DNA from: Amphiscolops sp. MND2022
Taxonomy: Eukaryota
Direction of reading: 5' to 3'
Length of the DNA: 64,000 bases
Assembly: GCA_964187785.1 (NCBI GenBank)
Contig: OZ076409.1
Coordinates: 40,302,001 to 40,366,000, forward strand
A model generated the notes under the pieces. That model saw only the letters and a program-made list of their open reading frames with translations, was not told the origin of the DNA and did not search any database. Each line of letters begins with the position of its first letter. Position 1 is the first letter of the stretch. The translations under genes were made by a program, and so were the position numbers. Positions 14,784 through 64,000 of this stretch are shown one piece after another.

Positions 14784-14862
14784 ATGGCGAAGATGGCGGG
14801 GAACTTGATCACGTTTCTGCTGATCTCCTGGAGTTGCTGGCTTCAACTGAACGCGCAAATCA
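14784..14862 (+). CDS. Exon 1 (signal peptide) of large FN3-repeat surface/secreted protein
   Basis: ATG MAKMAGNLITFLLISWSCWLQLNAQI, hydrophobic core, phase-1 donor GTGAGT that splices in frame to the following exons. Confidence 0.7.
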
Positions 14863-25805: not shown

Positions 25806-26102
25806 AGCCATCTCCTCTGACTAGTGTAGGGAAAACAGCAGACTCAGCAACCACTGATGGATTGACCTTGACTTTGGGTCTAGCTGCTGACGCCAACCAT
25901 AACCCGGACTCTTCAATCGTAGTAACACCAACATGTGGCAGCAATGACGAGACTGAAAAAACTTGCAATGAGGAGGTCAGCTGCCCGTTAACTGGACTCA
26001 ACGTACCAGGTTGCTTGTACACTTTCAATGCCGTATATCGTTGTCAAGGGGACAACCCAACGGCTCAAAACAGCGATCCATCAACAGGAACTTTCTGCAT
26101 TG
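25806..26102 (+). CDS. Exon 4, cysteine-rich FN3-like domain
   Basis: TTCAG acceptor, GTAAGT donor, 297 nt phase 1-1, SCPLTGLNVPGCLYTFNA, ends FCI. Confidence 0.8.
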
Positions 26103-28416: not shown

Positions 28417-29344
28417 TCACTCCCCGGGGTCTATGCTTGACGTCCCCGTCAAGTGAGGGTAGGCGTCATCGAGTTCCTTGCCAGGTATCATCTCTAGGAG
28501 CTCATCTGCCGTCGCAAGCTGCATTGCATAGACTGTTTCGTCGTCGCGTCGTCCGGTTGACCATTGGAAGCGTTTTTGACCCAGCATTGCTGCATTTTGA
28601 TCAAAACTACTTACAGCTTCGTATACAAATTTAACACGGCAAATTTTTTTTATATCCCGTCGCGAGCTACTCGGGCTTTTAAAACTTCTTTTCGGCCTCT
28701 CAAAGTTCGGCCGTCCGTGTCAAAATCTGTTTTAAGGTCAACGACCTTCACATGACAAGTTAAACTTCTTTTCCGAAGCTCGGGAGCTTCGCGCTGCTTG
28801 GCGCTTGGTAAAAACATCTTTTTTAGCAGCTCCCATCAATTTAACAGATATAGTCAATTTTTATTTTAAAAAAAATTTTGTGAGACTCAATCTCAGTCCT
28901 TCTAAGTAACTCAAGGAAAACAACAGGTTAATGCTCAAAAGCTTTCATTTCTTTCTTTTCCTTTGTTCTCTTCTCTTCTTTTTCCGTCTTTCCAGACGTT
29001 ATCAAAAATCAATATCAAAACTAGTAACTAAAATGGGTGTAATAGCACCTGATGAATATGCTTGGGATGTGTACTATATACCCTCAAGCTAGTAACACTA
29101 ACTACAACGAAAATTATTGCACCGAAATGATACAGATGGGGAGGAAGAAGCCCGCGGGCTTCAACCTCGCTTCTTGGTTTCTGCACCGTGATTAATTGAT
29201 GTTTTCGTATACAACTGCAAAGTTCGTTACAATGTTCAAGCGTATCAACGACATCTGACAACAAAGCTTCGATAAAAGAGCTTAGTAGCGACATTTAAAG
29301 CATAACAGCAATTCTTAATTTAACGGTGATGTTTGGACTTCGCT

Positions 29345-33911: not shown

Positions 33912-33958
33912 CTCATTAAGCTTAACTAACTAAGAATACGAGAAAACAACAAAAAAAA

Positions 33959-40738: not shown

Positions 40739-43700
40739 TTACCACTCTTCGGGCTGAGGTAGAGTCAATTGCTGATAATTTTCATTGGTAGTCATCTCTT
40801 CGATCAAAGCGTCGATGGTGAGTTCTGGGCGTGTTTCCCTCTCAATAGCCAGTAGCAATCTGGCAGACATTATCGTGCGTCCAGAAGGGTCGAAAATAGT
40901 TGGCTCTGGACTCGTCTGGATTTGAATTTTACCGCACGTAACGGTAAGAGAGGTTGCCACATGAACGGCTTCAGCTGGGCGTAACGTGAGAACCATTTCA
41001 CTATCGCTCAATGTCTGAGGGGTTGATGGCTGTGCAGCCCAGAGGCTGTAGGCCAAATCTTCATGTATTGGAACGTTTTGGCAATGTGATGCTGAGTGTT
41101 CAGTCATACCACAATTGACACAGAACATAGGACCGGAACATGCCGAGGCCACATTACTTTCGCAAAGATTTACTCGTTCGTTTGGCGCAGCGCGAGCAAT
41201 GGGTTTCCTTGCTTGATCCTTATTTGGGCATTCCCGCGCGAAGTGACCGGGTAATCCACAATTGAAGCATGCTCCTTGGGTAACTATCCTCGCTGGTTGT
41301 TGGGGCGGTGCAGCTTGTTGTACCGACGCTGGAGCTGGTGGGGCCATTTGGGGCTTTGCCTCGTGTTGTTGTCCTTGATTTGGAGGGAGCACATTTTGTG
41401 GCAGACCTGGTGCTGGATGAACCACTTTTCCTGGCACAAAAGGGTGAGGCCTTGATCTCATCGCATATCTAGGATCATAGGGCTTTGACGTTGTTGGACG
41501 GTGTCGCTGCAATTGCCGCGTGGTGAATCTCAAGGACTCCACAGTGGGCGGTTCAGTCAGATACGTCTCCGCCGCGTACACCACAGCCAATTCTTGTCGC
41601 AGTGTAGGGTCGTTCACACCATCTATGAAGCGTTGCAGGATTTCGTAACGACGGGTACTGATAGGCTCATCTGGAAAACCTTGGGTGCGCAGGCCTTCTA
41701 ATGCGTCCAAAAACTGCATCCAATCCTCCTTCTCCTGTTGAACGCGAGACATAAAGGTCTGCCGGACGTGCATACGGTTGCCACCTGTCCCGAATCTGCT
41801 GGCTAGGAGGGCGAACACCTTGTCTGGTGTATCTCGTTCAGGTTCTGACTTATTGATAATGTAGTTTCTTGCTTCTCCTTCTAGGTGATCAATTATTGCC
41901 CAGGCCTTGTCGACGTTTGATGATTTTGCATGTACCCTTTCCACCTTTCCAGGAAGCGTTTCATCAGTGGAAGCCACCCGTCAACGGTTCCGTCTTTTGT
42001 ACCTTTATACACTGTAGGACGGACTCTCGTCTGATCACGATTAGCAATTAATGGCGCCAGTTCTTTGGACATTGCCTTTGATATCGCTTCAGTGAATCTG
42101 AGTTGTTCCGGTGATATTGGTGCTTCTTCAGTTGTTGCCGGTGGTGGAACACTGCTACCTCGTGTAGAGTTAATTGAATCATCGGTGTTCTCCGAGATGA
42201 TCACTTCTCTGCGTCGGGTGCTGCTTGCGCACGGATTGCCCGGGGGCAATCCAGTGTCCGCAGTTTGGAATTCTGCATTTGACTCTCCCAAAGTCGCGTT
42301 TGCTGTTTGGAAGGTACTCGTGGTGTTGGTCAATTCGATGATGCACGTGGGTTCTCGTAGACCTGTGATACCCATGCTCAAAGTTTCAAGGGTTATTGCT
42401 TCATACGTTGGTTCCTTTTCGTGAGACTTCGTTATTGGCGGGATAAACTCCGTTTGTGCTGGAAGGATAAGCTTCGTGGACGTTGATACAGCTTCTCCAC
42501 TCGAAACAAGGGGTTGAGGTAGGGGTGCGTATCTCGCCATAGGTTGTTTGGAACCTGAGGGTTTCGTCGTGGTGATTATACTCTCTTTTGGTTTGAGTGA
42601 AACACTCTTCACAGGCTTTGGTAGGGACATGTCAGTCTCCTGCAATAGTTCTTTGATGGTGTTGTTTGGTAGAGTTGATTGAGGCTGGACATTTTTTAGC
42701 GCAGTGCCCATCGCCTGTATTTGCGAGCACACCTCCTGAATTTGGGCTTCCATACGTACCTCTCTTTGGGCCATCATATCCTTCATTTCAGCCATTCGAT
42801 AACCCATGGCATCCATGCGAGCAGCTTGTACTTCCTGTCCTTGCATTTGTCGCTCAGTGGAAGTCCTTAACTCACATTGCACAGCTTCAATCTCCTCCAC
42901 AATTGCCTGATGTTCTCTATCGCACCTCGCCTTGCGCTCAGATAGTTGGGAAGCAGCTTGCTTCACACCAGCTTGGGCTTCCAGCAGGGCTTTACGCGCC
43001 TTTGCTGCTTCATGTACAGCTCGGTATGCTGAAGATCGACCAGACACAGCTTTTGATGAAGGTGAGGACGAGCGCGAGTCGCCGTGAGGTCCTGTAGTGC
43101 CAGTCTGTGCTAGTAGAGCTGGAGGCCGTATTTGTCTACTTTTTCCCGATGGCCGGGGTGCAGTGGCTTCTTGCAAGCGCGCTCTGGCATAATTCATACC
43201 CCCGACATAAGACATTTGTTGCAATATCTCTGCCGTGTTCGCAGTGCTCTCGCTTGCCATGCTGGGAGCCTTGAATTGTCCAGTAGCATTCAAGCAACTC
43301 ATTTCAGCTTCTTCCTCAGCATTTGTTCTGTTGGAGTTGGGCCATGTTCCTGCTTCGTCAGTACCGAAAGGTGTGACAGCTACTTTGGTCAGTTCTTGCA
43401 ACCATTTGGACGTGTGCGCCTGACTTCCTGTTTCGTCGGCTGATCCCCCGATATCGTCTGCCGTCCTGGTGACCTGTTTGGTCTGGTATTCTTCTGATGC
43501 GTTGTCTGACATAGGGTCTGAAAAATCGGGTTCCATAACAAAACTGTCATCAGTTGGCCAATCTTCCTCCCTGGGGTCTGAGGTTAGGTCTGATATTGCA
43601 CTGAGGTTTGTCTCGCACGCCACGGGTTCTGGTGTTTTCAGTGTTTTGGCGTGTAGTGAGGCAGCTTCCCTACCCCTCTTTGAAAGATGTGAGTGCCGAT

Positions 43701-43767
43701 GGGTGTTCGAACGACTTAATGTCTTTGTGATCGAATTCCAAAGACTGCGGAAGTTGTTGTTTTTCAT
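40739..43767 (-). CDS. gag: gag (~1006 aa after removing an 8-bp duplication at 41936-41951)
   Basis: Capsid-like YKGTKDGTVDGWL..MKRFLERVHAK..KAWAIIDHLEGEAR; knuckles CFNCGLPGHFAREC and CVNCGMTEHSASHC; long coiled-coil N-terminal extension. Confidence 0.88.
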
Positions 43768-46659
43768 GACTTAGCCTATTTCGGAATAGTCGAAATTCGA
43801 TGAGGGAGTCGCTTCGGCGTGAAACGTTTACTGCGCGTTAATACCGTTGCGTGGGGTCGAAAACCGTGCGTTTAGGGTTCACGAGGCAACTATGTCACAC
43901 ACACTTAAGTTCTTTTGATAGTTTCAAAGATTTTTGGAGTCTTTCAAAATTCACTCATCGTCTGGTACGTGATGTTCGATTGTATAAAGTACTTGAAAAA
44001 TTATCACGATTCACATTAAGTGATGGACTCACTAACATGCGTTTAGACAAGGGAGTTTTTGCAAATTTTTTACATGGAAGACCGGGTTTCGTCCCACTTT
44101 TCTAAGTTTCGCCTCGGTGGAGACTTGAGCCAGAATGATGATACGCACGTCTCGAATGGGTCGAAACCACATCTAATGGTCGTAGCGAGTTCAAACTTAC
44201 TCAAGCAGTTGTTACCAAACCACAAGCTCAGAAAATGAGCTCAGATTGATGCTACCTTTTCGCTAAGACAATTATGCGACGTTTACAACAAATCTTGAAT
44301 TTTCTCGGAGAGTACCAAAAATATATAAGTGGCTCAAATTCGTTCCTGAAGAATAGGATCTGGCTCAAAATTGACCAGAGGATCTTACACACATATAGGT
44401 ACACGGAATTGAGCACCGATTTGAGCTCCGAGGGTTGTGCACTGTTTTGCCTTGGTATAGACGTGCGGTACACCTATGTCTCAGTAGGAGTCAAAATGCA
44501 CGCTTATTATACAATTTCTAGGCACCAGTATGAGTTAGCGGTTCGGTATTCTCGCTAACAATGCAACAACTAGCACAAGTCACGATGGTGGGCTGCAATT
44601 TATCCCCACTTTTCCAATAAGGTGTTCAGGCATTTCTGAAAAATTTCGAAAAATTTGCCTTTTTGCACCTCTTTTTGAGCAGTACTTTTCAGTCAATTTT
44701 TCAATAAATACAACACTGATTGGCTCGAAACTTAGTAGGCGCTGTCAGTGGGCGCCCACAATGCTGGTTCAATGGTCCGATGAAAGCTCGCGAGCTTTTC
44801 TAGGGTTTCGACTGAGTTCAGACACTATTTCAGCAACAGTCCTTTTTTTGACACTTTTTTCACAAATAGGCTAAGAGGGTCGACACTACAAACGTTACGG
44901 CAGGCAAAATAAGATCAACGTGTTGCCCCACTAGTCACAGCACTGCCACAAGTCCTCAATTAGCCGCGCCTGTTAGGTTTGAGGCACTGTCGGTCTTATA
45001 GTTTTGGAAATTTTCGGCTAGGTCAGCTCAATCTGATGTCAAAACGTCAGAGAGCTTTTCTCAACTTTGGTTAGCGCTAGGCTCACCAAATTTTCGGCAC
45101 TAGTATTATTTTTGTGGTGGTTACGAAAATGCAACCAGTTTTTAGCTAGGGTTCGGGAATCTATGACCCGACCCTAACAATTGGACAGTCCGGTTTTGTG
45201 GAAATTTGGTCAGATTCAATGCGTTTTTCCACTTTTCTCAGCACTGAAAAGGAATTTTTTGACGCGGTTTTCAGCACTATGCGTTATTTTTTATGTAAAA
45301 ACAGAAAATGAGAGCTGGGAAGCTCCTAGCTAACAAAAAGAGTGTCCAGGGGGTTTTAATTATATATGCGGACACTCCTGAAACTAACTAAAAATCAACG
45401 TTTTTCAACTTTTCTTCACACTGAAAAAGAATTTTGGGGTGCAGTCTTCACTCTTGACCGTTAAATCTTTCGAATAAACTGGAAGCAACAGTCCGCGGAC
45501 TGTTCTTGGTATAGGAATGTTAGTCAATGATCGGTTCAAGTTCCATTCAAGAATACTATTGGAAAACTTCAAAATTGCAATTTCTGTAGGTTTTTGTGGC
45601 AGGTAGTGACAATAATTACCGAAACAGGCAGCTCTAGGTACCGGCTGGTGTGCCCTGACATAATTGTGGCCCAGTGGGGATGTTTGGAAGTTCCAACATC
45701 AATCTCCCCACTACTAGAAGTGCTTAATTTTTCCGAAACGGGGTTTTCTCTCACAAGATTCGCACTAAGTGCTTTTTTGGGCAACTTTGAGCAGTTGGCC
45801 CTGGTTTTTGTGAACTCATTAGAGTTCTGAGCTACTTTTATTTAATTTCTGCAAATGTGTGGCTGGCACCAAGAGCGCTCGCGCTCATGTAGGTGTTTCG
45901 CCTCAAAGTGGCCAAATTTGGCACTTTTCGTCGAAAATACATGAAAAAACGCAATTTTTGCACAAAACAGGTGCAAATGCACACGCCTATTTGCAGAAAG
46001 CTCGTAAGAACATCGGCAAGTGATTACACATAAAATTTTGAGCAATCAAAAAAAATTTTTCAACCTGACTCAAAGTATTCATACAACCTGGATCGACGAG
46101 TTGTATCTTTCCGTTCCTTTTACTCGTCACCCAGAACAGTTAGAGACAAACGGGTTGCATCTCTAGATAGGTCAGTGTTTGTAGTACGTTGCCACTAAAT
46201 TTCGTTTTTCTGGGTAGCCTGTACGAGAAATGGGATAGGCGAGTCGTACAACTCCATTCCGGCAGGTTGTAAGGTACTTTTGAGCAAGGATCATCCTCTT
46301 CTCAACACTCGCTTCATTGGTCATAAAAAGCTGAAAAAGGCTGGAAAATACCTGTTAACACCTCTAGCAGCCTTTTGACGGCTTGCTAGACCAATTTTAG
46401 AGAGTGACCCGTTAAGAGGGTTGGTTATTTCGACTGTTACCTGTTAACTACTAAAAAGCTTCAGAATTACAACATACAGCGCTTTTTCACTAAATTTACC
46501 TTTAACCACCAGGCATAAAGCCTTCAATAATGTACATACAGGGTAAAAACATAGAAAACTCTGCTTCTGTCTTCTCCTCGTCTGAGTCGGGTCGTACTTG
46601 GCGTCAATCACCAGAGGGTCGGCTCTTTTAAAACCATTAAGGGAAGCACTTCGAAGCGA

Positions 46660-46676
46660 TCCCTCTGTGGTCGCCA
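46660..46676 (-). promoter_or_regulatory. Primer-binding site, tRNA-Arg-like
   Basis: Minus strand TGGCGACCACAGAGGGA, 16 nt downstream of the 5' LTR end. Confidence 0.7.
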
Positions 46677-46692
46677 AAAAATGATGTCTCTA

Positions 46693-47424
46693 TGTAACGA
46701 CAGGCTCTCACCACTGTCGCCGTAACCGTGAGAGTAAGAGGAACACATGATATGGGTATTTGCCCGGGACAGGCGCCCATGACCATGAGCTCATTTTGCC
46801 TCCTTCGGGTAAAAACTGTCCCGTCAGAGGAGGATTCCGCTTCTTGTGAAGTGCTCGCCGGCCTGATCCAGACTGTAATTGCTATCAGTAACGCGAATTA
46901 CGCTTTTTCTTCGAAACCAACGCTTAGATAGCCTTTAAAAACAGGTGAGGTGGAAAAGGAAAATCGTGTTCTCTTGTAGCTACAGAGGAAATCGAAATAA
47001 GTAGCTCACGAGCTATTACCACGACAAAATACGCAATTTACTGCATAATTAGCACTTTTGGGGCAGCAATTAGCCTGGGACACAAGCACGGATGCTTGTT
47101 CAAGCTAGTTGACTCATTTTGGTGGTCACAACATATTGTAATGATCTGCTAAAGAAAGCACCGATGGGAACAGAGTTTAGTCCGTATCGGCCGAAATTTG
47201 AGTCTTTTTCTGACAGGTTTTGCGGATTCCTGTAGTCGTCTAGTTCGTAGTGGGTCTCTTCTGCTTCTCTCGCTCAAATCCTCTTCAATTTCGGGGACAG
47301 GTCCTTTGGTAAAGACACGGTATCCTTCAGCGGAATATGACTTTTCAGGGAAGGGCATCTAGTCCCTTGAACGAAATTTTCAAAAAAAATTTCGAATTCT
47401 CGGACTCGATAAGTGATCGTTACA
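46693..47424 (-). repeat. 5' LTR of giant element
   Basis: Matches 27685-28416 at ~99%. Confidence 0.96.
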
Positions 47425-50400
47425 TTCGGAAATGTGGTTATAGAAGAGAAATTTGTTCGAAACTAAATGAATGATTTGGATCAGTTTTCAAACAGTTATT
47501 CCACAGTGACTTGAGTTTTTAAACAAGACGCCCGCTGAGCAGCGAGATATTTTCCGCCCGAACTGTTCTACAACTACATAAATTTGAGGCTCAAGGATAA
47601 CTAATGCACTATAAAGACGCTAAGAAGTTAGAAGAAAAGGAAGCTTCGATTTATCCTTGCCCAGTTGTGAAGGAAACACCTTTATTTTAGTATTTCTGCG
47701 ATAGCTGGCCAGTTTTCGTAATTTCGACACAATGCGACTTACCGAGTGAAATTTTTCATTTTTTTTCGAAAGCAATTTTCGAAAAATATTTTTTTGCAAT
47801 TTTTAGTTTATGAGGTTTTCTGTGAAAGAAATAAGTTTCCCGAGTCTTACGGGTGACCTTTCCGTTACTTTTAACCATGTGGAACTGATGAAGTCTCTTA
47901 CTGACTTACCGTGCCTCTTCCCGAAATTTTCATTTGGTCAAAGCGTACCTCCTTGATTTCATAGCTGATTTCGGCATCAAAAAGGTAGTTTGTGAGCTGA
48001 AACTTTTTCCGCCTTCATAGGATTTTACCGAAAAAAATCAAAAACATGGCGTTCTGAAAATCATGTTGGGAAAAAAGTGGTTTCCAATCTCTGGAGTATT
48101 TATTGGGATTAATTTTGGTACTGAGAAAAAGGTTTAGGCTTGAAACTAGGTCATTTGCAAGTTTAGGGACTTTGAGCGGTCCCTGGTTGGTATATTTTTG
48201 CACATAGTTCCATCAAAGGTGTCAAAAATTGGAAATTTTTCTGACAACTTTGGGATCAATTTGAGGAACTTTTCTAACATGAATCTACAGATGTCTTTCC
48301 ACAAATAGGCCTCCTGGACACCGAGTTTAGTTGTTGTTTATTGCCCACACCATTCTAACCCACGACATAGCTGGAAACGTTTTCCTTTGGAAGGCGTTCT
48401 CCATAGCTATTGTTTTTGCTTGAAATTTATTGAAAATTCAATACTTGACAATCAAGGTCGAAGTGTACGTTTTCAAGTAAAGTTTTTGAAAATTGAGCAA
48501 AAACACTTGTCTGAGATCTTTTTGAAACACTACCGGTAGCTAAACGTTTCAATCCTGAGCCCATGGGTTTTCTGATTGATGTGAGATTTCGGAAATGGTC
48601 CAGAATTGGGACTATGTTGTCGAAAATTGAGGAAAATCTGAACTTTTGACACCTTTGTTCTAAAGTCGACTAACTTCATCCTACGTTTCCCCCAAATTGC
48701 GTTGTGAATACCCTTTTGTTTCAACGCTCGGGTCAATGGAAGTTCTATTCTACAAAAATGTTCTTGGTTGGACAAAAATCAAGAATAATTTGTCAAAAAA
48801 CGTGCGTTTTTGTTGTTGAATCGATTTTGGGGTGCTTTGAGACCAATTCCAACCAAAAATTGCAAATATATCTTTAAAATAGCCTACTGGGTACCAGGAT
48901 TAACCCTTGTTGACATTGTTGAAACCTTAAAATTTTTTTATGCCACTCAATAATTGTATAAAAACTGCCTAAAATGTAAAACAATTCGAAAATTTTATTT
49001 TTGCATTTTTTGGGTCTTCCTGAGGAAATTCTCTGGCACAAAAGATGTAAATTTCTCTTTAAAAACGTGCTGTGGATCTAGTTTAATCATTTAGAGCTAT
49101 TCGGAGCTTTCATCTTGCAATTTTCCAATCTCAACAAAATTCACTGAAACTGTCAGAAATCAGCAAAACTCTGACTTTTTCGACTTTTTGCGGTCAGGTT
49201 TGAGCCATTTTTGAACCAAAGTCTGCAAATAATTCTCTAAAGGCCGACTGAAATAAGCGTTCAATCCTTGTTGAATCTTTGTTATCGTTCTGAATCCAAA
49301 ACGCTTCAAAATGTAGACATGGGTTGCTTAAAAACGAGGATGTTGAAAGCAAAAAAATGTTGGTGTTTTTGAAGCAAAACGCTGCAACGTTCTCTTCAAA
49401 AAACGTATTGCATATCTCGTTCTTTCGTTGTTGAGCCTTATGGAACTAATAACGAAGACTTTCAGGAATTGTACGGGCATTTCATTAAAAACGACAATCG
49501 TCGAATTTTTCGACTACTTCAAGGTCAATTTCAAGCACTTTTGAATTAGAAATTGTTCTTATCTGTTGTCGAAAGCTTACAGAGGCAGCAACTTTCTCAT
49601 TGTTTAGGGGTTTTAACATTCTAGTTCACAAAGTCTATCGATAGTTTGGCAATAATTGAAGAAATATGATGAAAACAGAAAATTTTGAAATTTTTCCTTT
49701 TTCGATGTCAATTCCAGACATTTTTCATTTGAAAAGCTGCATTTATTGTTCCACTAAGCATACGGGACATTTGTTCCTTGTTGACCCTTTCCAATCTCCG
49801 GAGTTTGTTGAAAATTTTTAAGAAAAACTGCATAAAACATTGAAATTCGAAAAATTTTGGGATTTTCGTCAATTTCGGTGAAAGTTGAGACTTTTTCATT
49901 CAAAAAACTGAAACTATCTCATCCTTAAAGACTACCGGACAACAAACTGCTACCTTGGTGAACGTTTTCATTATTCCAATCTACGGAGTTTGTCGAAATC
50001 GTGACAGAAATTGCATAAAAACAATGAAAATAAGAAAATTTTGGGTTTTTGGTCGTTTTTGGTGCCAACTTGAGATTTTCTTCATCTAAAAAACTGCATT
50101 AAATTCTTCGCAAAAACTTTTTGGACCAATACTGTTCCTTGCTTACGCTTCGCAACATTCTGATCTACGAAGTCTGTCGAAAATGTGACAAAAATTGCAT
50201 TAAAAATTCGAAAAATAGAAAGTTTGGGTTTTTTGTCACTTTCGGTTTCAGTTTGGGACCTTTTTCAATTAGAAAATAGAAATAATCTTTTCGGGAAAGC
50301 CTATTGGACAGCTAATACGGGCCACTTTGACCGTTTTCAACATTCTAATCAACGAAGTCCTACTAAAATTCGACAAAAATTGAATAAAATCGTTAAAAAT

Positions 50401-50701
50401 CGGAAATTTTTGGAATTTTGGTCATTTAATGGGTCAATTTTCTCTGACAAAACCGCATTTATCTCTTGCTAGAAAACTATTGGACATCGTGCAACGTTTG
50501 CAACATTCTAATTTGCGATGTTTATCAAAAAATTGAAAAAACGCATGAAAACGGTAAAAATTGAGAAATTTTGGAGTTTTTGTTTTTTTTTCGCGGCCAG
50601 TTTGAGATACACTATGGTATCAAAAAGCTACGTACACCAACATTTTTTTAAAAAAACTCAGAACAGTAAAATTTGAAACAACTGTTGAAACAAATAATAA
50701 A

Positions 50702-52204
50702 TCAATATCCCGTCAAACTACCATGGTTTTTGATTACCTTCACCAGACGATTCTCATACGATGAGTACAAGTTGCGAACAACATCAGGGTTTATGTTGTT
50801 CCACACTTCCATAACCTTTTCTTCTAAATTCTCCCAGGTAACAATCTGACCTCGCAAGCTTTTTTTAAAAATGGCCCAAATATTTTCAATAGGATTCAGG
50901 TCAGGACTGTAAGCTGGCCAATCCAGCACCTCCCATTGCTCTTGGGCCAGAAAATTGCGAACAACTTCACTTTTGTGTACTGGGGCGTTGTCTTGCTGGA
51001 ACACCAAATCCGGTATATTCAAATGTCGATCGGATTGCTTTAAAATCTCCAAATATCCGTAACTGTTGAGTGTTGCGGGACATTTAATTAGCAGTTTTCT
51101 ACCATCTGATCTGATGGCCCCCCAAAACATCATAGATCTTTTGTCTGTGCGTATTCCCTGTGTGTTTTTCGGGCAAAAGCGACGACCAGTTTTCCTGAAC
51201 ACCCGCACAACGCCATCACTATTCAAGCGCACACGGGTTTCGTCTGAGAATACGACGTTTTCCCAGAAGCCTAGTTTCCATCCAGCCGAATTTCAGAACA
51301 AAAATGCAAAAGTTCGAGTGAAACAAAAACAACCTTCTTCAAGCTTACAATAACACCCAAATCTGGCCAGCGAATATGCATCTAAGGTAGTGCAGAAGGT
51401 CCCCCCTCTCATTTTCTCTTTTTTAACGCAACATACGAAACCGAACGAGACTAAAGGGTCCCCTTTCAAACTTTATGATATTTTGGTGTTTTGAGGTTTT
51501 TTGTCTTTTCATAAAAGTTCTGAGCAGAGTTTCTACACTTTGCGCTTTTTGAGCCTTAGGTTTAGCGCCGACTTTAGATGTTCTCGTCTTGTATCATTGA
51601 CAGCACCATCAAAAGCGCTATTAGTTCACTCTACCAAAGTGATTGATTTGATAAAATATTTTATTTCGTTTTGGTTTTTTCGGCATTTTGAGATTTTTCT
51701 CAAATATTTTTTCTTTCAAAAAATTCCATAACTTTTTCCCATTTTCGGTGAAAATTGACGCTGGATAAAAACCAAGGGGCTTTTTCAACATTCTCGAGCA
51801 CCAGCGTTTTCTGACCAGCCTTTGTTTTTTGTTCAAGTTAAACTTTTTTGCGGCTTTTCTAGAAACAATTCCGTACTTCTTCAGGATTCTTCGAATAGTG
51901 CATTTAGAAACTGTCTTTGACGTTGAAAAAGAGTTTTGCAGTACTCTTTCTCGTTCTAATGTTGTTTTTGGGTCTTTTTCCACTCTTCGAACTATTAGTC
52001 TTTGCTCTTTTTCGCTGAGCTTTTCTGGCCCGCCTGGAGGTTTTTTCGCCACATAAGAGTTCGTTCTCAAAAACTCTGATAAGCTGTTTGAGCTGTCGAT
52101 CGAGATTTAAGACCCAACTTTTCTTTAATTTCTTTGTATGATAAACCCATTTCGCGAAGTGTAACGATTTTGCAAACAACGTATGAATCCAAAGGTTTGA
52201 CCAT
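50702..52204 (-). pseudogene. Tc1 transposase, disrupted by a frameshift (~52070) and a ~500-bp insertion
   Basis: MVKPLDSY HTH start; VVFSDETR, FQQDNAPVH, WPAYSPDLNPIENIW with 34 residues between D and E. Confidence 0.9.
51274..51772. mobile_element. Small TIR element inserted in the Tc1 transposase (itself containing a HINE-like end)
   Basis: Splits KKP|LGFWENVV; imperfect TIR GTTT(CC/TT)ATCCAGC; flanks CTA/CAA; GCGCCGACTT..CTTGT at ~51565-51592. Confidence 0.55.
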
Positions 52205-53758
52205 TTTCAACAATGTTTAATTCAAGAGTGATTGATTTCACTTCCGGTTGAGAATGAAAATGAAAAGTTCTTCACAAACTGACTGAGATTTAATTTTCAG
52301 CTGTACGTAGCTTTTTGCTACCATAGTGTATTTTTCATTAAGAAAACTGCAATAAATTCTTTAGAAAAGCCTACTGGACTAATAAATTTTCCTTGCTGAC
52401 GCTTCTCAACATTCTAATCTACGAAGTCTGTCGAAAGTTTGACAAAAATGCATTTAAAAATTTGAAAAATGGAAAGTTTTGGGTTTTTTTGTTATTTTCG
52501 GTATCAATATGAGACCTTTTTCATTTGGAAAAAAGCAATTATCTTTTCTGAAAAGCCTACCAGACAGCAAATGCGTGCCATGTTGAGTGTTCTCATTATT
52601 TTAATTAACGAAGTATGTCGAAAATTTGACAAAAATTGCTCAAAATTGTTAAAAATCAGAAAATTTTGGAATTTTTGTCATTTTTGGGGTCAATTTTCTG
52701 AAACAAAATCGCATTTATCTCTTCATAGAAGACTATTGGAGAACGAATTCGTGCCCTGTTGAACGTTTTTAACATTCTAATTCGCGGTGTCTTTCAAAAA
52801 AATGACAAAAATTGCATAAAAACGTTAAAAAATTGAGAAATTTGGGAATTTTTGTCATTTTCGGGGTCATTTCGTCATTAAGGGGTCATTTTCGTCATTT
52901 TAAAAAAACTCCAAAAATCTCTACAAATACATATCGCACGAAGCTAAATTTATGTGAGTTGAATTCTATGGGTAACACCCTTAAAGTTAAACATAAATAA
53001 ATTCTTGGCAAATTTTGTAAAAAAAACCCGTTTGATTTAAATATTTTCCTTTCCCATATATGAGATATGGGCGGAAAATAATAAGTAATTTCAATATTTG
53101 ACCTATTCAAACAACTGTGAGATCAATCGCCAACAGATTGCCAGATACGAGCCAGTAAAGTTTTACGAAGTGCGGGCGCAAACGGAGAAGACTTGATGTC
53201 CGGTACACCCCTTAATGAACTGCATCTGAAATACGCTTTTGAAAGCGATATGTTCTGAAACCGTGCCTAGTTAGGCCGAACCTCTCGGATTCTTATTGCT
53301 GTTATTGACAACAATTGACATTTGCATCTAATTATTGAAAAGGCACTAAAGGAAGTGACTCCGCTGCACCGTTGTCTCGTCAATCACTTCAAAAAACCCT
53401 GTTTTGATAAACTAACGTTTTTTTTGCTAAAAAAGAACGCAAAATTTTTGTTTCCACTTGATATTCTGTCCGAACTCTGGTCACTACTTAAGGTGTAGCT
53501 GCAGTGGAAGCCAGAACCCTATCAAAAGGTGATGACTAATATTCTTTTTGCAGATCTGATTCAGTCCTTATTAGAAACAAAAATTGTTTGGATTTGACCA
53601 GAAAAATGAAACAAACACTAACGAAGCAACTTATGTTACATAAAGTTGTCCAATAGGTTATATCCTGGTTAATGTAGCTGTTGGTTGAGGTGCAAGTCCC
53701 AGCTTAGAAATAGAGATTGTGTGAAAGTTTTGTAAGATTGACTGTGCTTTTTCTTCAG

Positions 53759-54079
53759 CTCCAATGGATTTGGGAGGCACGATCACAATCGACACTTCGA
53801 ACACAAACGACGAAACTTCAGTAAAGTTTGATGGGTTGATAGTTTCTGCCGGAAGAGCAAACGTTCAAGTCGAAGCTACATCTACAACGAGCGGTTGTAC
53901 TAATAAAGACACTGATGTTGACACAGCTGTAAGTTTATCCAACACGGCTTCTTCTATCACAGTGACTGGTTTGACGTCCGGTTGTCCTTACTCCTTCACT
54001 TTGAAAGCAGCTTGCAAGGAATCAGATGGCACCTCAGTTGTAGTGTCGAGTGCTGCACATAATGAGGAACATTGCACAA
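53759..54079 (+). CDS. FN3-like repeat exon, copy 1
   Basis: TTCAG acceptor, GTTAGT donor, 321 nt phase 1-1, ITVTGLTSGCPYSFTLKA. Confidence 0.85.
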
Positions 54080-55098
54080 GTTAGTTGATTTATATGGAAT
54101 GGATTTTTGATAGTGCTCTTGAACTAACAATAGAAAAGACTCTTTAGTGAAGATCGTTGGCTGGATTGTAAGGTGTCTGCCATTTTGAGAGCAATAAGTG
54201 TAGGTTTATATCTGAATCCAAAAAGTTTCAAAAAGTTCTGGTGAAAAAAGTAGTGTTTTGGAAAAACCTACTTTTATACAACTTGGAAACAAATGATTTG
54301 TTCAGACTTATTCGACGTTACTGAACCAGTTGTGAATGGTTCTCTTGTAAGAAAGGAAGTATGGAAAAATGTAACCTCAGTAATAAGACCTTGGTTCAGT
54401 TTTTGGCGAGAGTTTTATGACGGAAAATATAATTGTTACAAAATTTTAAGTGCAGTCAAGGTTTGTTTTTGGTCCATTCAAACATGAAGTAGCGATTTAA
54501 ACCTTAGATCTTAGACTCTTACAACTGCCAATTTTTCTTTCTTTTTAAATCACATTTTGACATGAAACTGTATAAACAGACAACGGACACTACCGACTTG
54601 TGAATCACATCAAAAAACACAGTTTTGAAAAAGAATCTTTTTTGTTTGCCAGGTTGAGACACAAAGAACGCAAGATATCCATTTCCACATAGTAACTTGT
54701 CCAAACTTTGGTCACTACTTGAGTTGTATCTGCTGCATTAGAAGCCAAAGCCCTAGTTATTTTTTCAATGTTGTTACGTAACGTACTAACTGATGAAACG
54801 TCGAAAGTAGAATGGAGTTCAAATTGGAACACCTAACCAATGCCTAATCAAAACGTGATAGTATATTCTCCTTTTGCAGATCTGATTCACTATTTATTAG
54901 GAACATGAAACTGTTCGAAGTTGACCCGAAAAGTGCGAGAAACACCAACGAAGCAGCTTATGTTACATGAAATCGTCAAATAGGTTGTCTAATGGTTAAT
55001 GTCGCAGTTGGTTGAAGTGCAAGCCCCAGCTAAGAATTGAAGATTGGGTAAGAAGTTTGCATCCTTGGTTTTAAAGAGTGATTGTGTTATTTCTTTAG

Positions 55099-55419
55099 CT
55101 CCAATGGATTTGGGAGGCACGATCACAATCGACACTTCGAATACAAACGACGAAACTTCAGTAAAGTTTGATGGGTTGATAGTTTCTGCCGGAAGAGCAA
55201 ACGTTCAAGTTGCAGCTACATCAACAACGAATGGTTGTACTAATAAAGACACTGATGTTGACACAGCTGTCAGTTTATCCAACACGGCTTCTTCTATCAC
55301 AGTGACCGGTTTGACATCCGGTTGTCCTTACTCCTTCACTTTGAAAGCAGCTTGCGAGGAGTCAGATGGCACCTCAGTTGTAGTGTCGAGTGCTTCGCAT
55401 ATTGAGGAACATTGCACAA
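55099..55419 (+). CDS. FN3-like repeat exon, copy 2
   Basis: TTTAG acceptor, GTTAGT donor, 321 nt, open frame. Confidence 0.85.
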
Positions 55420-56452
55420 GTTAGTTGATTTATATGGAATGGTTTTTTGATAGTGCTCTTGAACTAACAATAGAAAAGACTCTTTAGTGAAGATCGTTGG
55501 TTGGATTGTAAGGTATCTGCCATATCTAGAGCAATAAGTGTAGGTTTATATTTGAATCCAAAAAGTTTCAAAAAGTTCTGGGGAAAAAAGTAGAGTTTTG
55601 GAAAAACCTACTTTTATACAAGTTAGAAATAATTGATTTGTTCACACTTCTTCGACGTTACTAAACCAGTTGTGAATGTTTCTCTTGTAAGAATCATGCA
55701 GAAAGGAAGTATGGAAAATTTTAACCTCAGTAATTTTACCTGGTTCAGTTTTTGGCGAGAGTTTTATGACGGAAAATATAATTGTACAAATTTTTAAGTG
55801 CAGTCAAGGTTTGTTTTTGGTCCATTCCAACATGAAGTAGCGATTTAAACCTTAGACCTTAGACTCTTACAACTGCCAATTTTTCTTTCTTTTTGAATCA
55901 CATTTTGACATGATACTGTATGAACAGACAACGGACACTACCGACTTGTGAATCACATCAAAAAACACAGTTTTGAAAAAGAACCTTTTCTGTTTGCCAG
56001 GTTGAGACACAAAGAAAGCAAAGAACGCAAGATATCCATTTCCACATAGTAACTTGTCCAAACTTTGGTCACTACTTAAGTTGTATCTGCAGTAGAAGCC
56101 AGAACCCTAGTTATTTTTTCAATGTTGTTACGTAACGTACTAACTGATGAAACGTTGACAGAAGAATGGAGTTCAAATTGGAATACCTAACCAATGCCTA
56201 ATCAAAACGTGATAGTATATTCACCTTTTGCAGATCTGATTCGTTATTTATTAGGAACATAAAACTGTTTGGAATTGACCCGAAAAGTGCGAGAAACATC
56301 AACGAAGCAACTCAGGTTACATGAAATTGTCAAATAGGTTGTCTCCTGGTTGATGTCGCTGTAGATTGAGGTGCAAGCCCCAGCTTAGAAATAAAGATTT
56401 TGTAAAAGTTTTGCATCCTTGTTTTTGAAGATTGATTGTGTTTTTTTTCTAG

Positions 56453-56773
56453 CTCCAATGGATTTGGGAGGCACGATCACAATCGACACTTCGAATACAA
56501 ACGACGAAACTTCAGTAAAGTTTGATGGGTTGATAGTTTCTGCCGGAAGAGCGAACGTTCAAGTGGCAGCTACATCTACAACGAGCGGTTGTAATAATAA
56601 AGACACTGATGTTGACACAGCTGTCAGTTTATCCAACACGGCTTCTTCTATCACAGTGACCGATTTGACATCCGGTTGTCCTTACTCCTTCACTTTGAAA
56701 GCAGCTTGCGAGGAGTCAGATGGCACCTCAGTTGTAGTTTCGAGTGCTTCGCATATTGAGGAACATTGCACAA
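56453..56773 (+). CDS. FN3-like repeat exon, copy 3
   Basis: TCTAG acceptor, GTTAGT donor, 321 nt, open frame. Confidence 0.85.
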
Positions 56774-57792
56774 GTTAGTTGATTCATATGGAATGGTTTT
56801 TTGATAGTGCTCTTGAACTAAAAATAGAAAATACTCTTTAGTGAAGATCGTTGGCTGGATTGTAAGGTGTCTGCCATATCTAGAGCAATAAGTGTATGTT
56901 TATATTTGAATCCAAAACGTTTTAAAAAGTTCTGGTGAAAAAGTAGAGTTTTGGAAAAACCTAGTTTTATACAACTTGAAAAGAAATGATTTGTTCACAC
57001 TTATTCGACGTTACTGAACCAGTTGTGACTGGTCCTCTTGTAGGAATCATGCAGAAAGGAAGTTTGAGAAAAATGTAACCTCAGTAGTAATACCTAGGTT
57101 CAGTTTTGGAGAGAGTTTCATGACGGAAAACATAATTGTACAAAACTTTATGTGCAGTCAAGGCTTGTTTTTGGTCCATTCAAACATGAAGTAGCGTTGT
57201 AAACCTTAGATTCTTACAACTGCCAAAATCTCTTTCTTTTTAAATCACATTTTGACATGAAACTGTAGGAACAGACAACGGACACTACCGACTTGTGAAT
57301 GACATCATAAAGCACAGTTTTGAAAAAGAACCTTTTTTGTTTCCAGGTTAAGACACAAAGAACGCCAGATTTCATTTCCACATAGTAACTTGTCCAAACT
57401 CTGTCTGGTCACTACTCAAGTTGTATCTGCAGTGGAAGCCAGAACCCTAGTTATTTTTTCAATGTTGTTACGTAACGTACTAACTGATGAAACAACGACA
57501 GTAGAATGGAGTTCAAATTGGAACACCTAACCAATGCCCAATCAAAACGTGATAGTATATTCTCCTTTTGCAGATCTGATTCGTTATTTATTAGGAACAT
57601 GAAACTGTTCGAAGTTGACCTGAAAAGTGCGAGAAACACCAACGAAGCAGCTTATGTTACATGAAATCGTCAAATAGGTTGTCTAATGGTTAATGTCGCA
57701 GTTGGTTGAAGTGCAAGCCCCAGCTAAGAACTGAAGATTGGGTAAGAAGTTTGCATCCTTGGTTTTAAAGAGTGATTGTGTTATTTCTTTAG

Positions 57793-58113
57793 CTCCAATG
57801 GATTTGGGAGGCACGATCACAATCGACACTTCGAATACAAACGACGAAACTTCAGTAAAGTTTGATGGGTTGATAGTTTCTGCCGGAAGAGCAAACGTTC
57901 AAGTCGCAGCTACGTCTACAACGAGCGGTTGTACTAATAAAGACACTGATGTTGCCACAGCTGTCAGTTTATCCAACACAGCTTCTTCTATCACAGTGAC
58001 CGGTTTGACATCCGGTTGTCCTTACTCCTTCACTTTGAAAGCAGCTTGCGAGGAATCAGATGGCACCTCAGTTGTAGTGTCGAGTGCTGCACATAATGAG
58101 GAACATTGCACAA
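57793..58113 (+). CDS. FN3-like repeat exon, copy 4
   Basis: TTTAG acceptor, GTTAGT donor, 321 nt, open frame. Confidence 0.85.
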
Positions 58114-59129
58114 GTTAGTTGATTTATATGGAATGGAATTTTGATAGTGCTCTTGAACTAACAATAGAAAAGACTCTTTAGTGAAGATCATTGGCTGGAT
58201 TGTAAGGTGTCTGCCATTTCTAGAGCAATAAGTGTAGGTTTATATCTGAATCCAAAAAGTTTCAAAAAGTTCTGACGAAAAAAGTAGTGTTTTGGAAAAA
58301 CCTACTTTTATACAACTTGGAAACAAATGATTTGTTCAGACTTATTCGACGTTACTGAACCAGTTGTGAATGGTTCTCTTGTAAGAATCATGCAGAAAGG
58401 AAGTATGGAAAAATGTAACCTCAGTAATAAGACCTTGGTTCAGTTTTTGGCGAGAGTTTTATGACAGAAAACATAATTGTACAAAATTTTATGTGCAGTC
58501 AAGGATTGTTTTTTGTCCATTCAAACATGAAGTAGCGTTGTAAACCTTAGATTCTTACAACTGCCAAAGTCTCTTTCTTTTTAAATCACATTTTGACATG
58601 AAACTGTAGGAACAGACAACGGACACTACCGACTTGTGAATGACATCATAAAGCACAGTTTTGAAAAAGAACCTTTTTTGTTTCCAGGTTAAGACACAAA
58701 GAACGCCAGATTTCATTTCCACATAGTAACTTGTCCAAACTCTGGTCACTACTCAAGTTGTATCTGCAGTGGAAGCCAGAACCCTAATTATTTTTTCAAT
58801 GTTGTTACGTAACGTACTAACTGATGAAACAACGACAGTAGAATGGAGTTCAAATTGGAACACCTAACCAATGCCCAATCAAAACGTGATAGTATATTCT
58901 CCTTTTGCAGATCTGATTCGTTACTTATTAGGAACATGAAACTGTTCGAAGTTGACCCGAAAAGTGCGAGAAACACCAACGAAGCAGCTTATGTTACATG
59001 AAATTGTCAAATAGGTTGTCTAATGGTTAATGTCGCAGTTGGTTGAAGTGCAAGCCCCAGCTAAGAACTGAAGATTGGGTAAGAAGTTTGCATCTTTGGT
59101 TTTAAAGAGTGATTGTGTTATTTCTTTAG

Positions 59130-59450
59130 CTCCAATGGATTTGGGAGGCACGATCACAATCGACACTTCGAATACAAACGACGAAACTTCAGTAAAGTTT
59201 GATGGGTTGATAGTTTCTGCCGGAAGAGCAAACGTTCAAGTTGCAGCTACATCAACAACGAATGGTTGTACTAATAAAGACACTGATGTTGACACAGCTG
59301 TCAGTTTATCCAACACGGCTTCTTCTATCACAGTGACCGGTTTGACATCCGGTTGTCCTTACTCCTTCACTTTGAAAGCAGCTTGCGAGGAGTCAGATGG
59401 CACCTCAGTTGTAGTGTCGAGTGCTTCGCATATTGAGGAACATTGCACAA
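59130..59450 (+). CDS. FN3-like repeat exon, copy 5
   Basis: TTTAG acceptor, GTTAGT donor, 321 nt, protein identical to copy 2. Confidence 0.85.
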
Positions 59451-60468
59451 GTTAGTTGATTTATATGGAATGGTTTTTTGATAGTGCACTTGAACTAACA
59501 ATAGAAAAGACTCTTTACTGAAGATAGTTGGTTAGATTGTAAGGTGTCTGCCATATCTAGAGCAATAAGTGTAGGTTTAAATTTGAATCCAAAAAGTTTC
59601 AAAAAGTTCTGGTGAAAAAAGTAGTGTTTTGTAAAAACCTAGTTTTATACAACTTGGAAATAAATGACTTGTTCAGACTTATTCGACGTTACTGAACCAG
59701 TTGTGAATGGTTCTCTTGTAAAAATCATGCAGAAAGGAAGTATGAAAAAATGTAACCTCAGTAGTAATACCTAGGTTCAGTTTTTGGCGAGAGTTTTATG
59801 ACGGAAATCATAATTGTACAAAAATTTATGTGCAGTCAAGGCTTGTTTTTGGTCCATTCAAACATGAAGTAGCGTTGTAAACCTTAGATTCTTACAACTG
59901 CCAAGTCTCTTTCTTTTTAAATCACATTTTGACATGAAACTGTAGGAACAGACAACGGACACAACCGACTTGTGAATGACATCATGAAGCACAGTTTTGA
60001 AAAAGAACTTTTTTTGTTTGCCAGGTTAAGACACAAAGAACGCAAGATATTCATTTCCACATAGTAACATGTCCAAACTTTGGTCACTACTCAAGTTGCA
60101 TCTGCAGTGGAAGCCAGAACCCTGGCTATTTTTTTAAAGGTTGTTACGTAACGTACTAACTGATGAAACAACGACAGTAGAATGGAGTTCAAATTGGAAC
60201 ACCTAACCAATGCCCAACCAAAACGTGATAGTATATTCTCCTTTTGCAGATCTGATTCGTTACGTATTAGGAACATGAAACTGTTCGAAGTTGACCTGAG
60301 AAGTGCGAGAAACACCAACGAAGCAGCTTATGTTACATGAAATCGTCAAATAGGTTGTCTAATGGTTAATGTCGCAGTTGGTTGAAGTGCAAGCCCCAGC
60401 TAAGAACTGAAGATTGGGTAAGAAGTTTGCATCCTTGGTTTTAAAGAGTGATTGTGTTATTTCTTTAG

Positions 60469-60789
60469 CTCCAATGGATTTGGGAGGCACGATCACAATC
60501 GACACTTCGAATACAAACGACGAAACTTCAGTAAAGTTTGATGGGTTGATAGTTTCTGCCGGAAGAGCAAACGTTCAAGTCGCAGCTACGTCTACAACGA
60601 GCGGTTGTACTAATAAAGACACTGATGTTGACACAGCTGTCAGTTTATCCAACACAGCTTCTTCTATCACAGTGACCGGTTTGACATCCGGTTGTCCTTA
60701 CTCCTTCACTTTGAAAGCAGCTTGCGAGGAATCAGATGGCACCTCAGTTGTAGTGTCGAGTGCTGCACATAATGAGGAACATTGCACAA
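60469..60789 (+). CDS. FN3-like repeat exon, copy 6
   Basis: TTTAG acceptor, GTTAGT donor, 321 nt, open frame. Confidence 0.85.
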
Positions 60790-61808
60790 GTTAGTTGATT
60801 TATATGGAATGGATTTTTGATAGTGCTCTTGAACTAACAATAGAAAAGACTCTTTAGTGAAGATCATTGGCTGGATTGTAAGGTGTCTGCCATTTCTAGA
60901 GCAATAAGTGTAGGTTTATATCTGAATCCAAAAAGTTTCAAAAAGTTCTGGTGAAAAAAGTAGTGTTTTGGAAAAACCTACTTTTATACAACTTGGAAAC
61001 AAATGATTTGTTCAGACTTATTCGACGTTACTGAACCAGTTGTGAATGGTTCTCTTGTAAGAATTATGCAGAAAGGAAGTATGGAAAAATGTAACCTCAG
61101 TAATAAGACCTTGGTTCAGTTTTTGGCGAGAGTTTTATGACAGAAAACATAATTGTACAAAATTTTATGTGCAGTCAAGGATTGTTTTTTGTCCATTCAA
61201 ACATGAAGTAGCGTTGTAAACCTTAGATTCTTACAACTGCCAAAGTCTCTTTCTTTTTAAATCACATTTTGACATGAAACTGTAGGAACAGACAACGGAC
61301 ACTACCGACTTGTGAATGACATCATAAAGCACAGTTTTGAAAAAGAACCTTTTTTGTTTCCAAGTTAAGACACAAAGAACGCCAGATTTCATTTCCACAT
61401 AGTAACTTGTCCAAACTCTGTCTGGTCACTACTCAAGTTGTATCTGCAGTGGAAGCCAGAACCCTAGTTATTTTTTCAATGTTGTTACGTAACGTACTAA
61501 CTGATGAAACAACGACAGTAGAATGGAGTTGAAATTGCTACACCTAACTAATGCCCAATCAAACGTGATGGTATATTCTCTTTTTGCAGATCTGATTCGT
61601 TATTTATTAGGAACAAAAAACTGTTTGGAGTTGACCTGAAAAGTGCGAGAAACACCAACGAAGCAGCTTAGGTTACATGAAATTGTCGAATAGGTTGTCT
61701 CCTGGTTAATGTCGCTGTTGATTGAGGTGCAAGCACCAGCTTAGAAATAAAGATTGTGTAAAAGTTTTGCTTCCTTGTTTTTGAAGATTGATTGTGTTAT
61801 TTCTTTAG

Positions 61809-62129
61809 CTCCAATGGATTTGGGAGGCACAATCGCTATCGACACTTCCAATACAAACGACGAAACTTCAGTAAAATTTGATGGGTTGATAGTTTCTGCC
61901 GGAAGAGCAAACGTTCAAGTTGCAGCTACATCAACAACGAATGGTTGTACTAATAAAGACACTGATGTTGACACAGCTGTCAGTTTATCCAACACGGCTT
62001 CTTCTATCACAGTGACCGGTTTGACATCCGGTTGTCCTTACTCCTTCACTTTGAAAGCAGCTTGCGAGGAATCAGATGGCACCTCAGTTGTAGTGTCGAG
62101 TGCTGCACATAATGAGGAACATTGCACAA
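61809..62129 (+). CDS. FN3-like repeat exon, copy 7
   Basis: TTTAG acceptor, GTTAGT donor, 321 nt, open frame. Confidence 0.85.
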
Positions 62130-63142
62130 GTTAGTTGATTTATATGGAATGACTTTTTAGTGTTATTGAACTAACAATAGAATAACTCTTTAAGTGAAGA
62201 TCGTTGGTTGGATCGTAAAGTGTTTGAAATATTTAGAGCAATAAGTGTAAGTTTTTTGGATCCAATATTTTTTAGAAAGTTCTGATGAAAAGGAGATTTT
62301 TGGGAAAGGCTAGTTAGATCCAATGTGGAAACAATTGTTTTGTTCGTACTTTTGCATCGCTTTTAAAATGGCTGTTACTGTTTTTCCCCTGAATTCCATG
62401 CAAAAACATTGAATGGAAAGTGTAGTGTGTAATTTCAGTGGAATTATCTTTGACCAACATCTGGCGAAAACTTTTTGACGGAAAACATGTTTATACAAAT
62501 TTTGACAGCAGTCAATGTTTATGTTTGGTCCAATCAAACTCGAAGTAGCGATGTAAACCTTAGACTCTTTTAATTGCCGGTTCCTGTTTTTTTAAATACG
62601 TTTTGACATGAAACTGTATGAACAGACAACAGACACAACCGACTTGTGAATACCATCAAAAAGCACTTTTTTGAAAAAGAACTTTTTTATTTGCAAGTTG
62701 AAGACACAATGAGCGCACGATCTTCACTTCCACTTGGTAACTTGTCCAAACACTGGTCACTTCTTGAGGTGTAGCTGTCATGGAAGTCAGAACATTGAGT
62801 AGTTTCTTTTAATGATGTCGTGTAACGGCCTAACTGATGAAACGTCGAACAGTAGAGTGGAGTTAAAATTTGTACACCTAACTAATTCCCAATCAAAACG
62901 TGATGATATATCCTCTTTTTGCAGATCTGATTAGTTCCTTATGAGGAACATAAAACTGTTTGGAGTTGACCTGAAAGGTGCGAGAAGTACCAACGAAGCA
63001 GCTTATGTTACATTAAATTGTCAAATAGGCTGTCTCCTGGTTAAAGTCGCTGTTGATTGAGGTGCAAGCCCCAGCTTAGAAATAAAGATTGTGTGAAAGT
63101 TTCGCATCCTTGTTTTGAAGATTGATTGTGTTATTTTTCTAG

Positions 63143-63463
63143 CTCCAATGGATTTGGGAGGCACGATCACAATCGACACTTCGAATACAAACGACGAAAC
63201 TTCAGTAAAGTTTGATGGGTTGATAGTTTCTGCCGGAAGAGCAAACGTTCAAGTCGCAGCTACGTCTACAACGAGCGGTTGTACTAATAAAGACACTGAT
63301 GTTGACACAGCTGTCAGTTTATCCAACACAGCTTCTTCTATCACAGTGACCGGCTTGACATCCGGTTGTCCTTACTCCTTCACTTTGAAAGCAGCTTGCG
63401 AGGAATCAGATGGCACCTCAGTTGTAGTGTCGAGTGCTGCACATAATGAGGAACATTGCACAA
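63143..63463 (+). CDS. FN3-like repeat exon, copy 8
   Basis: TCTAG acceptor, GTTAGT donor, 321 nt, protein identical to copy 6. Confidence 0.85.
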
Positions 63464-64000
63464 GTTAGTTGATTTATATGGAATGGATTTTTGATAGTGC
63501 TCTTGAACTAACAATAGAATAACTCTTTAAGTGAAGATCGTTTGTTGGATCGTAAAGTGTTTGCCATATTTAGAGCAATAAGTGTAATTTTTTTGGATCC
63601 AAAATTTTCTAGAAAGTTCTGATGAAAAAGAGATTTTTGGGAAAGGCTAGTTAGATCCAATGTGGAGATAATTATTTTGTTCGTACTTTTTCATCGCTTT
63701 TAAAATGGTTGTCACTGTTTTCCCCTGAAGTCCATGCAAAAACTCTGAATGGAAAGTGTGTAACTTCAGTGGAAATATCTTTGTCTAACTTCTGGCGAAA
63801 ACCTTTTGATGGAAAACCTGTTTATACAAAGTTTTGACTGCAGTCAAGGTTTGTGTTTGGTCCATTCAAACATGAAGTAGCCATGTAAATCTTAGACTCT
63901 TAAAACTGTCAAATTCTGTTTTTTCATTACGTTTTGACATGAAACTGTATCAACAGACAACGGACACAACTGACTAGTGAATCACTCTGGAAAGCATTGT

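Follow-up and report, generated by a model that had tools for sequence, protein, structure and literature searches.

A tandem array of near-identical FN3 exon–intron units behind a signal-like exon in Amphiscolops sp. MND2022

A 64,000-nt stretch of DNA from Amphiscolops sp. MND2022 (assembly GCA_964187785.1, contig OZ076409.1, positions 40,302,001 to 40,366,000, forward strand), hereafter the window, was analyzed, and a tandem array of fibronectin type III (FN3) exons was found in its right-hand part. The array lies behind an exon resembling a signal peptide, and the best explanation, which we consider probable, is that its exons are mostly joined one after another into a long FN3 chain of a cell-surface or secreted protein. 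For FN3 exon–intron units, recent amplification in tandem with concerted evolution is an already known phenomenon. The protein likely works in the manner of an R3 receptor tyrosine phosphatase ectodomain. Neither a name for the gene and its cysteine-rich FN3 family in the collections searched nor a description in the literature (supplements were outside the scope) was found.

The first-pass annotation of this DNA had reported at least eight copies of a 321-nt exon, and all eight were located. The array and its exons are as follows, in window coordinates.

53376..64000, forward strand: tandem array of ~1.34-kb exon+intron units, open-ended at the window edge
53759..54079, forward strand: repeat exon 1
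55099..55419, forward strand: repeat exon 2, identical to exon 5
56453..56773, forward strand: repeat exon 3
57793..58113, forward strand: repeat exon 4
59130..59450, forward strand: repeat exon 5
60469..60789, forward strand: repeat exon 6
61809..62129, forward strand: repeat exon 7, downstream intron 20–22% diverged from introns 1–6
63143..63463, forward strand: repeat exon 8, 1 nt from exon 6, downstream intron 23–24% diverged from introns 1–6

Each repeat exon was in phase 1-1 (offset 2) with one open frame, and was bounded by a polypyrimidine tract with an AG acceptor and by a GTTAGT donor, as the annotation had stated. Its claim that the exons had been copied together with introns of about 1 kb was likewise confirmed; the seven complete introns measured 1013–1033 nt, and the units were spaced 1334–1354 nt apart. 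Homology to the repeat unit began at approximately 53376 and extended past the window end.

Each repeat exon encodes one complete domain. The repeat matched Pfam fn3 with E = 7e-4 and 20.2 bits, which falls short of the curated cut-off (25 bits), and the related open reading frame (ORF) P0091 scored 27.4 bits, above that cut-off. A structure was modeled with AlphaFold2 for P0001, which comprises the repeat and a neighboring domain (8 aligned sequences, predicted local distance difference test (pLDDT) 80). The model contained two beta-sandwiches, and among known structures it came closest to tandem FN3 domains from fibronectin and tenascin (Z 13.2, root-mean-square deviation 4.2–4.5, 173–177 aligned). 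As modeled, the repeat domain adopts the seven-stranded FN3 beta-sandwich. The repeat contains four cysteines, no tryptophan, 31% serine plus threonine, and no N-glycosylation sequon; disulfide bonds are predicted as likely. A single-sequence fold prediction was poor (pLDDT 47) and was not used.

On pairwise comparison, the repeat exons were 0–17 nt and 0–6 residues apart, with proteins 94–100% identical. The near-identity claimed by the annotation was therefore upheld, but its upper bound of five residues was not, since copies 1 and 3 and copies 3 and 7 differ by six. Six peptide types were distinguished, and two exon pairs (2/5 and 6/8) encode identical peptides. The mean divergence was 3.0% for exons and 13.3% for introns (range 3.6–24.1%). 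Non-synonymous variation was confined to 9 of 106 codons, with two states apiece, and the ratio of non-synonymous to synonymous differences per site (pN/pS) was 0.157 (mean pS 0.083, pN 0.013; 28 pairs). The repeat exons are under purifying selection, and this ratio indicates that they are maintained as coding sequence, without diversification.

Moreover, the units are recombinant mosaics. Along the unit, the nearest-neighbor copy switches from stretch to stretch, and the incompatibility of neighboring sites was 0.29 compared with 0.58 after permutation (P ~0.0005; test similar to the pairwise homoplasy index, 77 informative sites in units 1–7, 2000 permutations). Exons 6 and 8 are 1 nt apart, yet their downstream introns differ by 24%. 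None of the seven complete units was identical to another, and at least 39 substitutions separated any pair. Thus, the array is not one sequence pasted repeatedly, which speaks against an assembly artefact.

Upstream of the array, a likely first exon and three further candidate exons were found.

14784..14862, forward strand: likely first exon, coding part; 26-residue signal-peptide-like segment with a hydrophobic core, phase 1, GTGAGT donor
19242..19466, forward strand: divergent short FN3-like exon, 74 aa, phase 1-1; weak tblastn match to the repeat, weak assignment
23396..23635, forward strand: divergent FN3-like exon, 79 aa, phase 1-1; Pfam fn3 E = 0.016
25806..26102, forward strand: FN3-like exon with cysteines, 98 aa, phase 1-1; identity to the repeat 28%

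The signal-like character of the first exon is predicted from its hydrophobicity (Kyte–Doolittle 9-residue mean up to 2.3). The annotation's assignment to a cell-surface protein gene is supported by this predicted signal-peptide exon; the window shows no transmembrane segment. The exon at 25806..26102 shares all four cysteines with the repeat, and an identical ORF was recorded on two contigs. The exon at 19242..19466 had no Pfam match at E ≤ 0.5.

The repeat peptides and their relatives were recorded on contigs in ENA, which were equated with each other through recorded size alone. A 440,410-bp contig records all six repeat peptide types of the window, together with 8 of the 10 window transposon ORFs looked up, and no repeat peptide besides these six. 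Three two-domain FN3 ORFs, P0002, P0031, and P0050, are present on the same contig. P0002 is a repeat-type domain fused with a second FN3-like domain in one ORF, and its partner P0001 agrees with the repeat in 87 of the first 89 positions and in 7 of the following 16; no two-domain exon of the P0002 kind was found within the window. Since the contig records no extra repeat peptides and the introns that follow exons 7 and 8 have diverged from the inner ones by 20–24%, we infer that the array ends soon beyond the window, in the exon of P0002.

Of the six repeat peptides, three recur on a second contig, of 152,221 bp; the other three are unrecorded there, and the contig has two of its own. One of these private peptides combines the copy-3 type with a lysine that otherwise occurs only in copy 1. 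Partners of the three two-domain ORFs are also found on this contig, 3, 18, and 1 substitutions apart. Judged by these records, it would most simply be a second haplotype in which the repeats are mixed differently, and it may be partial. The ORFs P0031 (440-kb contig) and P0160 (152-kb contig) are apparent alleles whose 18 substitutions are clustered at residues 41–67, seven of them within 12 residues, and the neighboring pairs differ by 1 and 3. This divergence reflects either balancing selection or non-allelic copies.

According to the proposed mechanism, the eight repeat exons and the three upstream FN3-like exons would join into a rod of at least 11 FN3-like domains, and of more with the downstream pairs. 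The chain would act as a spacer or a multivalent adhesive rod. The length per FN3 domain is roughly 3.5–4 nm, and at that length the eight repeats would add ~30 nm. Unequal crossing-over or gene conversion would multiply and homogenize the units, and the number and mix of domains would thereby differ between haplotypes. Just past the window, P0002 would close the array and be followed by more divergent two-domain exons.

Several points weigh against this explanation. The window shows neither a transmembrane nor a protein tyrosine phosphatase (PTP) domain, and serial inclusion is predicted from genomic sequence. The place of P0002 on its contig is likewise our deduction. The exon filter, which covered phase 1-1 exons of at least 150 nt between the signal exon and the array and outside the long terminal repeat (LTR) element described below, is modest by itself: three upstream exons were found on the coding strand and one on the minus strand, and 5 of 100 shuffles also gave three. 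The case for these exons is strengthened by the Pfam fn3 match of the second and by the alignment of the third to the repeat. All eight repeat donors are GTTAGT, with T at +3, compared with GTRAGT at the four upstream exons, and this could permit skipping. The named vertebrate proteins match through a generic C-terminal FN3 motif only (best single domain in Bombina, 16 bits). Thus, they serve as analogues that illustrate the kind of protein and are not shown orthologues, and the annotated vertebrate models do not prove joint inclusion of all repeats.

Judged from the exon sequences, the repeat exons are likely spliced mostly in series. The same gene could also be spliced with its repeat exons often skipped, which would give a ladder of ectodomain lengths per allele by tenascin- or titin-like inclusion. 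We consider this unlikely, but worth keeping in view; it supplements serial inclusion and does not exclude it. In its favor, two of the vertebrate analogues carry the isoform labels X19 and X28 in their annotation, T occupies donor position +3 in 8 of 8 repeat exons, and every subset of the 321-nt, phase 1-1 exons stays in frame, as the annotation had pointed out. However, the three non-repeated upstream exons are equally symmetric. In-frame subsets are therefore no evidence of alternative splicing, and symmetry characterizes the domain family as such. The repeat donors are, moreover, as near to consensus as the upstream donors (2 mismatches compared with 2–4). In titin, most homologous exons are present together in one transcript, and the same distinction from exclusive exons is drawn there (PMC1397879).

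Serial splicing to the upstream exons presupposes a 27.6-kb intron between the exon at 25806..26102 and the array, in which two transposons were found, both antisense to the gene.

27685..47425, reverse strand: intronic Ty3/gypsy-type LTR retrotransposon, 19.7 kb, found by self-BLAST; Pfam protease, reverse transcriptase, RNase H, and integrase
50607..52331, reverse strand: intronic Tc1/mariner-type element, ~30-bp terminal inverted repeats; Pfam DDE_3 E = 4e-20

The array might accordingly not, or no longer, be joined to the upstream exons, either because this transposon-filled intron has cut the gene or because the array has another start. The position of the 19.7-kb element and the Tc1 element between exon and array agrees with such a break, and the LTR insertion is recent, its LTRs (733 bp; 27685–28417 and 46693–47425) being 99.3% identical. 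However, purifying selection has preserved the open frame and the splice sites in each of the eight exons, the exon phases match across the intron, both transposons are antisense, and the exon filter gave no further candidate exon between the LTR element and the array. This alternative is very unlikely.

The Ty3/gypsy-type element contains very long ORFs, with the pol region followed by ORFs of 924 and 1185 residues 3' of pol, and its flanks show an evident match of 3 bp only. Its ORFs belong to clusters of 79–208 members, and those found were each recorded on one contig only; the insertion may therefore differ or be absent on the partner contig. The Tc1/mariner element sits within a degenerate ~185-bp tandem repeat (~49560–52870), and its transposase ORF cluster has 134 members. 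Upstream of the gene, a second, decayed LTR element was found at 2094–5644 (217-bp repeats 95% identical, Retrotrans_gag match), as well as a 175-codon ORF of undefined type at 11342–11878.

The annotation had offered two alternatives. A long, probably length-variable ectodomain including most or all exons fits the present results, but the other, Dscam-like cassette or mutually exclusive splicing, finds no support. On that view, one repeat exon would be chosen per transcript and a recognition surface thereby diversified. Homologous exons that lie in tandem and agree in length and phase formally qualify as candidates for mutual exclusion (PMC3228551). In addition, the best selector-like tile (~70–120 nt 5' of the acceptor) pairs with an upstream intron site near 47696 at −35.4 kcal/mol. 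However, this duplex ranked first among 40 tile-region tests, and 6 of 100 tile-specific shuffles did at least as well. Among the 15 most recurrent inverted-match groups, the lead one reached an E of 1.6. No significant docking/selector pairing was thus found in the region upstream of the array, as far as the window covers it. For Dscam exons 4 and 9, the docking sites are located 3' of the cluster (PMC4691838), and the equivalent region here is past the window end.

The mechanisms of mutual exclusion named in PMC5740500 are frameshift, proximity of donor and branch point (<50 nt), and splice-site class (U2/U12), and none of these blocks to joint inclusion applies to the eight repeat exons. 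Joint inclusion causes no frameshift, all sites are ordinary GT-AG, and the introns exceed 1 kb, compared with the steric limit of <50 nt given there. The diversity on offer is also small, with 9 of 106 codons varying non-synonymously in two states each, two pairs of exons identical in peptide, and a pN/pS of 0.16; each exon is a whole domain, and the copies are homogenized under purifying selection. Because frame, distance, and splice class set no block, diversity is little, and no significant docking site lies upstream, mutually exclusive splicing is unlikely, and a Dscam-like choice of one exon is left with a very slim chance. Near-identical tandem repeats are prone to mis-assembly, but a false tandem expansion has an almost negligible probability given the 39 or more substitutions between complete units, the bias of the changes to synonymous sites, and the recording of 3 of 6 peptide types on the second contig too.

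An acceptor-like site (pyrimidine tract plus CAG) was observed in every repeat intron, 205–219 nt 5' of the exon.

53554, 54880, 56234, 57574, 58911, 60250, 61590, 62925: acceptor-like intron sites

If used in phase 1, such a site would extend the frame by a short tail ending in a stop codon; the resulting form would be truncated and possibly secreted. The idea that the site marks the start of a decayed exon copy was rejected, as the scores of seven of the eight copies resembled those of shuffled sequence, with copy 1 a borderline case (12/300, at the DNA level).

Further members of the family were found at a separate locus (52,247- and 131,405-bp contigs), with four clusters and 14 two-domain FN3 ORFs in all. 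The ten ORFs read there (P0035, P0161–P0166, and P0168–P0170) were 81–100% identical to each other and 41–44% to P0001; some differ solely in read-through tails, and they may stem from another organism. Recombination among them is suggested by incompatibility in 128 of 231 informative column pairs, and this array is more diverse than that of the window (54 of 199 columns variable). P0091, on a 134-kb contig, is a further, more distant two-domain FN3 ORF. In a tree of 14 domains, A-type and B-type domains formed separate groups (support 95/87), and the repeat fell with the former. The family unit is thus an A–B pair, of which the window locus multiplied A alone.

When representatives were used as queries, 5 of the 149 new matches listed scored at least 32 bits on a single domain, namely, P0024, P0031, P0035, P0050, and P0091, P0024 being the window's own exon ORF. 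The remaining matches listed reached at most 23 bits, via the generic FN3 motif, and among longer proteins the repeat searches yielded P0001 only. A metagenome match, L001 (31 residues, 55%; the one of 513 pattern matches that passed), was set aside as probably chance or generic.

The second array and the one strongly divergent domain pair suggest a wider reading, in which a lineage-specific cysteine-rich FN3 receptor family with several independently amplified, recombining arrays would form a polymorphic system for self, mate, or symbiont recognition. This reading includes a haplotype-specific number and mix of repeats, divergent alleles of one domain pair, and variable exon inclusion, and taken as a whole it is quite doubtful. 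Greater importance would follow only if it were true. As it stands, the array cleanly illustrates how an FN3 protein is lengthened through concerted evolution of exon–intron units. The boundaries of conversion or crossover can be seen in the sequence, and the second contig suggests allelic differences in the array. Moreover, the system allows asking how faithfully the spliceosome joins eight near-identical exons in series.

Among known systems, the R3 phosphatases (PTPRB, PTPRJ/CD148, and PTPRH) resemble the gene in having an N-terminal signal followed by an FN3 chain, with runs of 90–100% identical FN3 repeats. The three PTP-bearing proteins among the search matches were vertebrate R3 phosphatases with 20–34 FN3 stretches. 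In Bombina PTPRB (XP_053545324.1), 30 of 41 85-residue windows are at least 90% identical to another part of the protein; the corresponding counts are 16 of 38 in Anabas PTPRB-like (XP_026220775.1), 11 of 15 in a Lepisosteus (gar) fibronectin-like protein, and 4 of 25 in Puntigrus PTP-eta-like. Bombina PTPRB also has Cys-Thr-x-Pro domain joints like those in the two-domain ORFs of this family, and FN3 domains 1–2 of CD148/PTPRJ matched the P0001 model with Z 12.1, within about 1 of the top matches. A signal peptide with an FN3-only ectodomain, a feature of R3 phosphatases, holds for the window portion of the gene. However, no transmembrane or PTP domain is seen in the window, the likeness is at the generic FN3 level, and the repeat here has four cysteines and no tryptophan in a family whose unit is an A–B domain pair, often in one exon. 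The gene is not classed as an R3 phosphatase, as the region in which transmembrane and PTP domains would be expected lies beyond the window.

Tenascins offer a second parallel. In tenascin-W, a single-exon FN3 domain occurs in 1–9 copies by species, with nine in mouse, two of them identical, and concerted evolution of FN3 exons and introns is cited for tenascin-X (both PMC1578592). Species-specific duplication of a single-exon FN3 domain with some identical copies is thus shared. Unlike the gene studied here, tenascins have heptad, epidermal growth factor (EGF), and fibrinogen domains; between the signal exon and the array, no EGF repeats and only the three FN3-like exons were found within the scope of the exon filter. 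Arthropod Dscam1 is similar in being a gene for a cell-surface protein whose homologous exons, comparable in length, are arrayed in tandem. However, its variants are spliced singly via docking/selector pairing (PMC4691838), and the variants of exons 4 and 17 represent old, diverged lineages (PMC1397879), whereas the copies here are homogenized, at 94–100% protein identity. Finally, bacterial Periscope proteins (PMC8201768) have near-identical tandem domains whose variable number alters the projection of the N-terminus. This is an analogy only: their genes are intronless, whereas the unit multiplied in Amphiscolops is an exon together with its intron.

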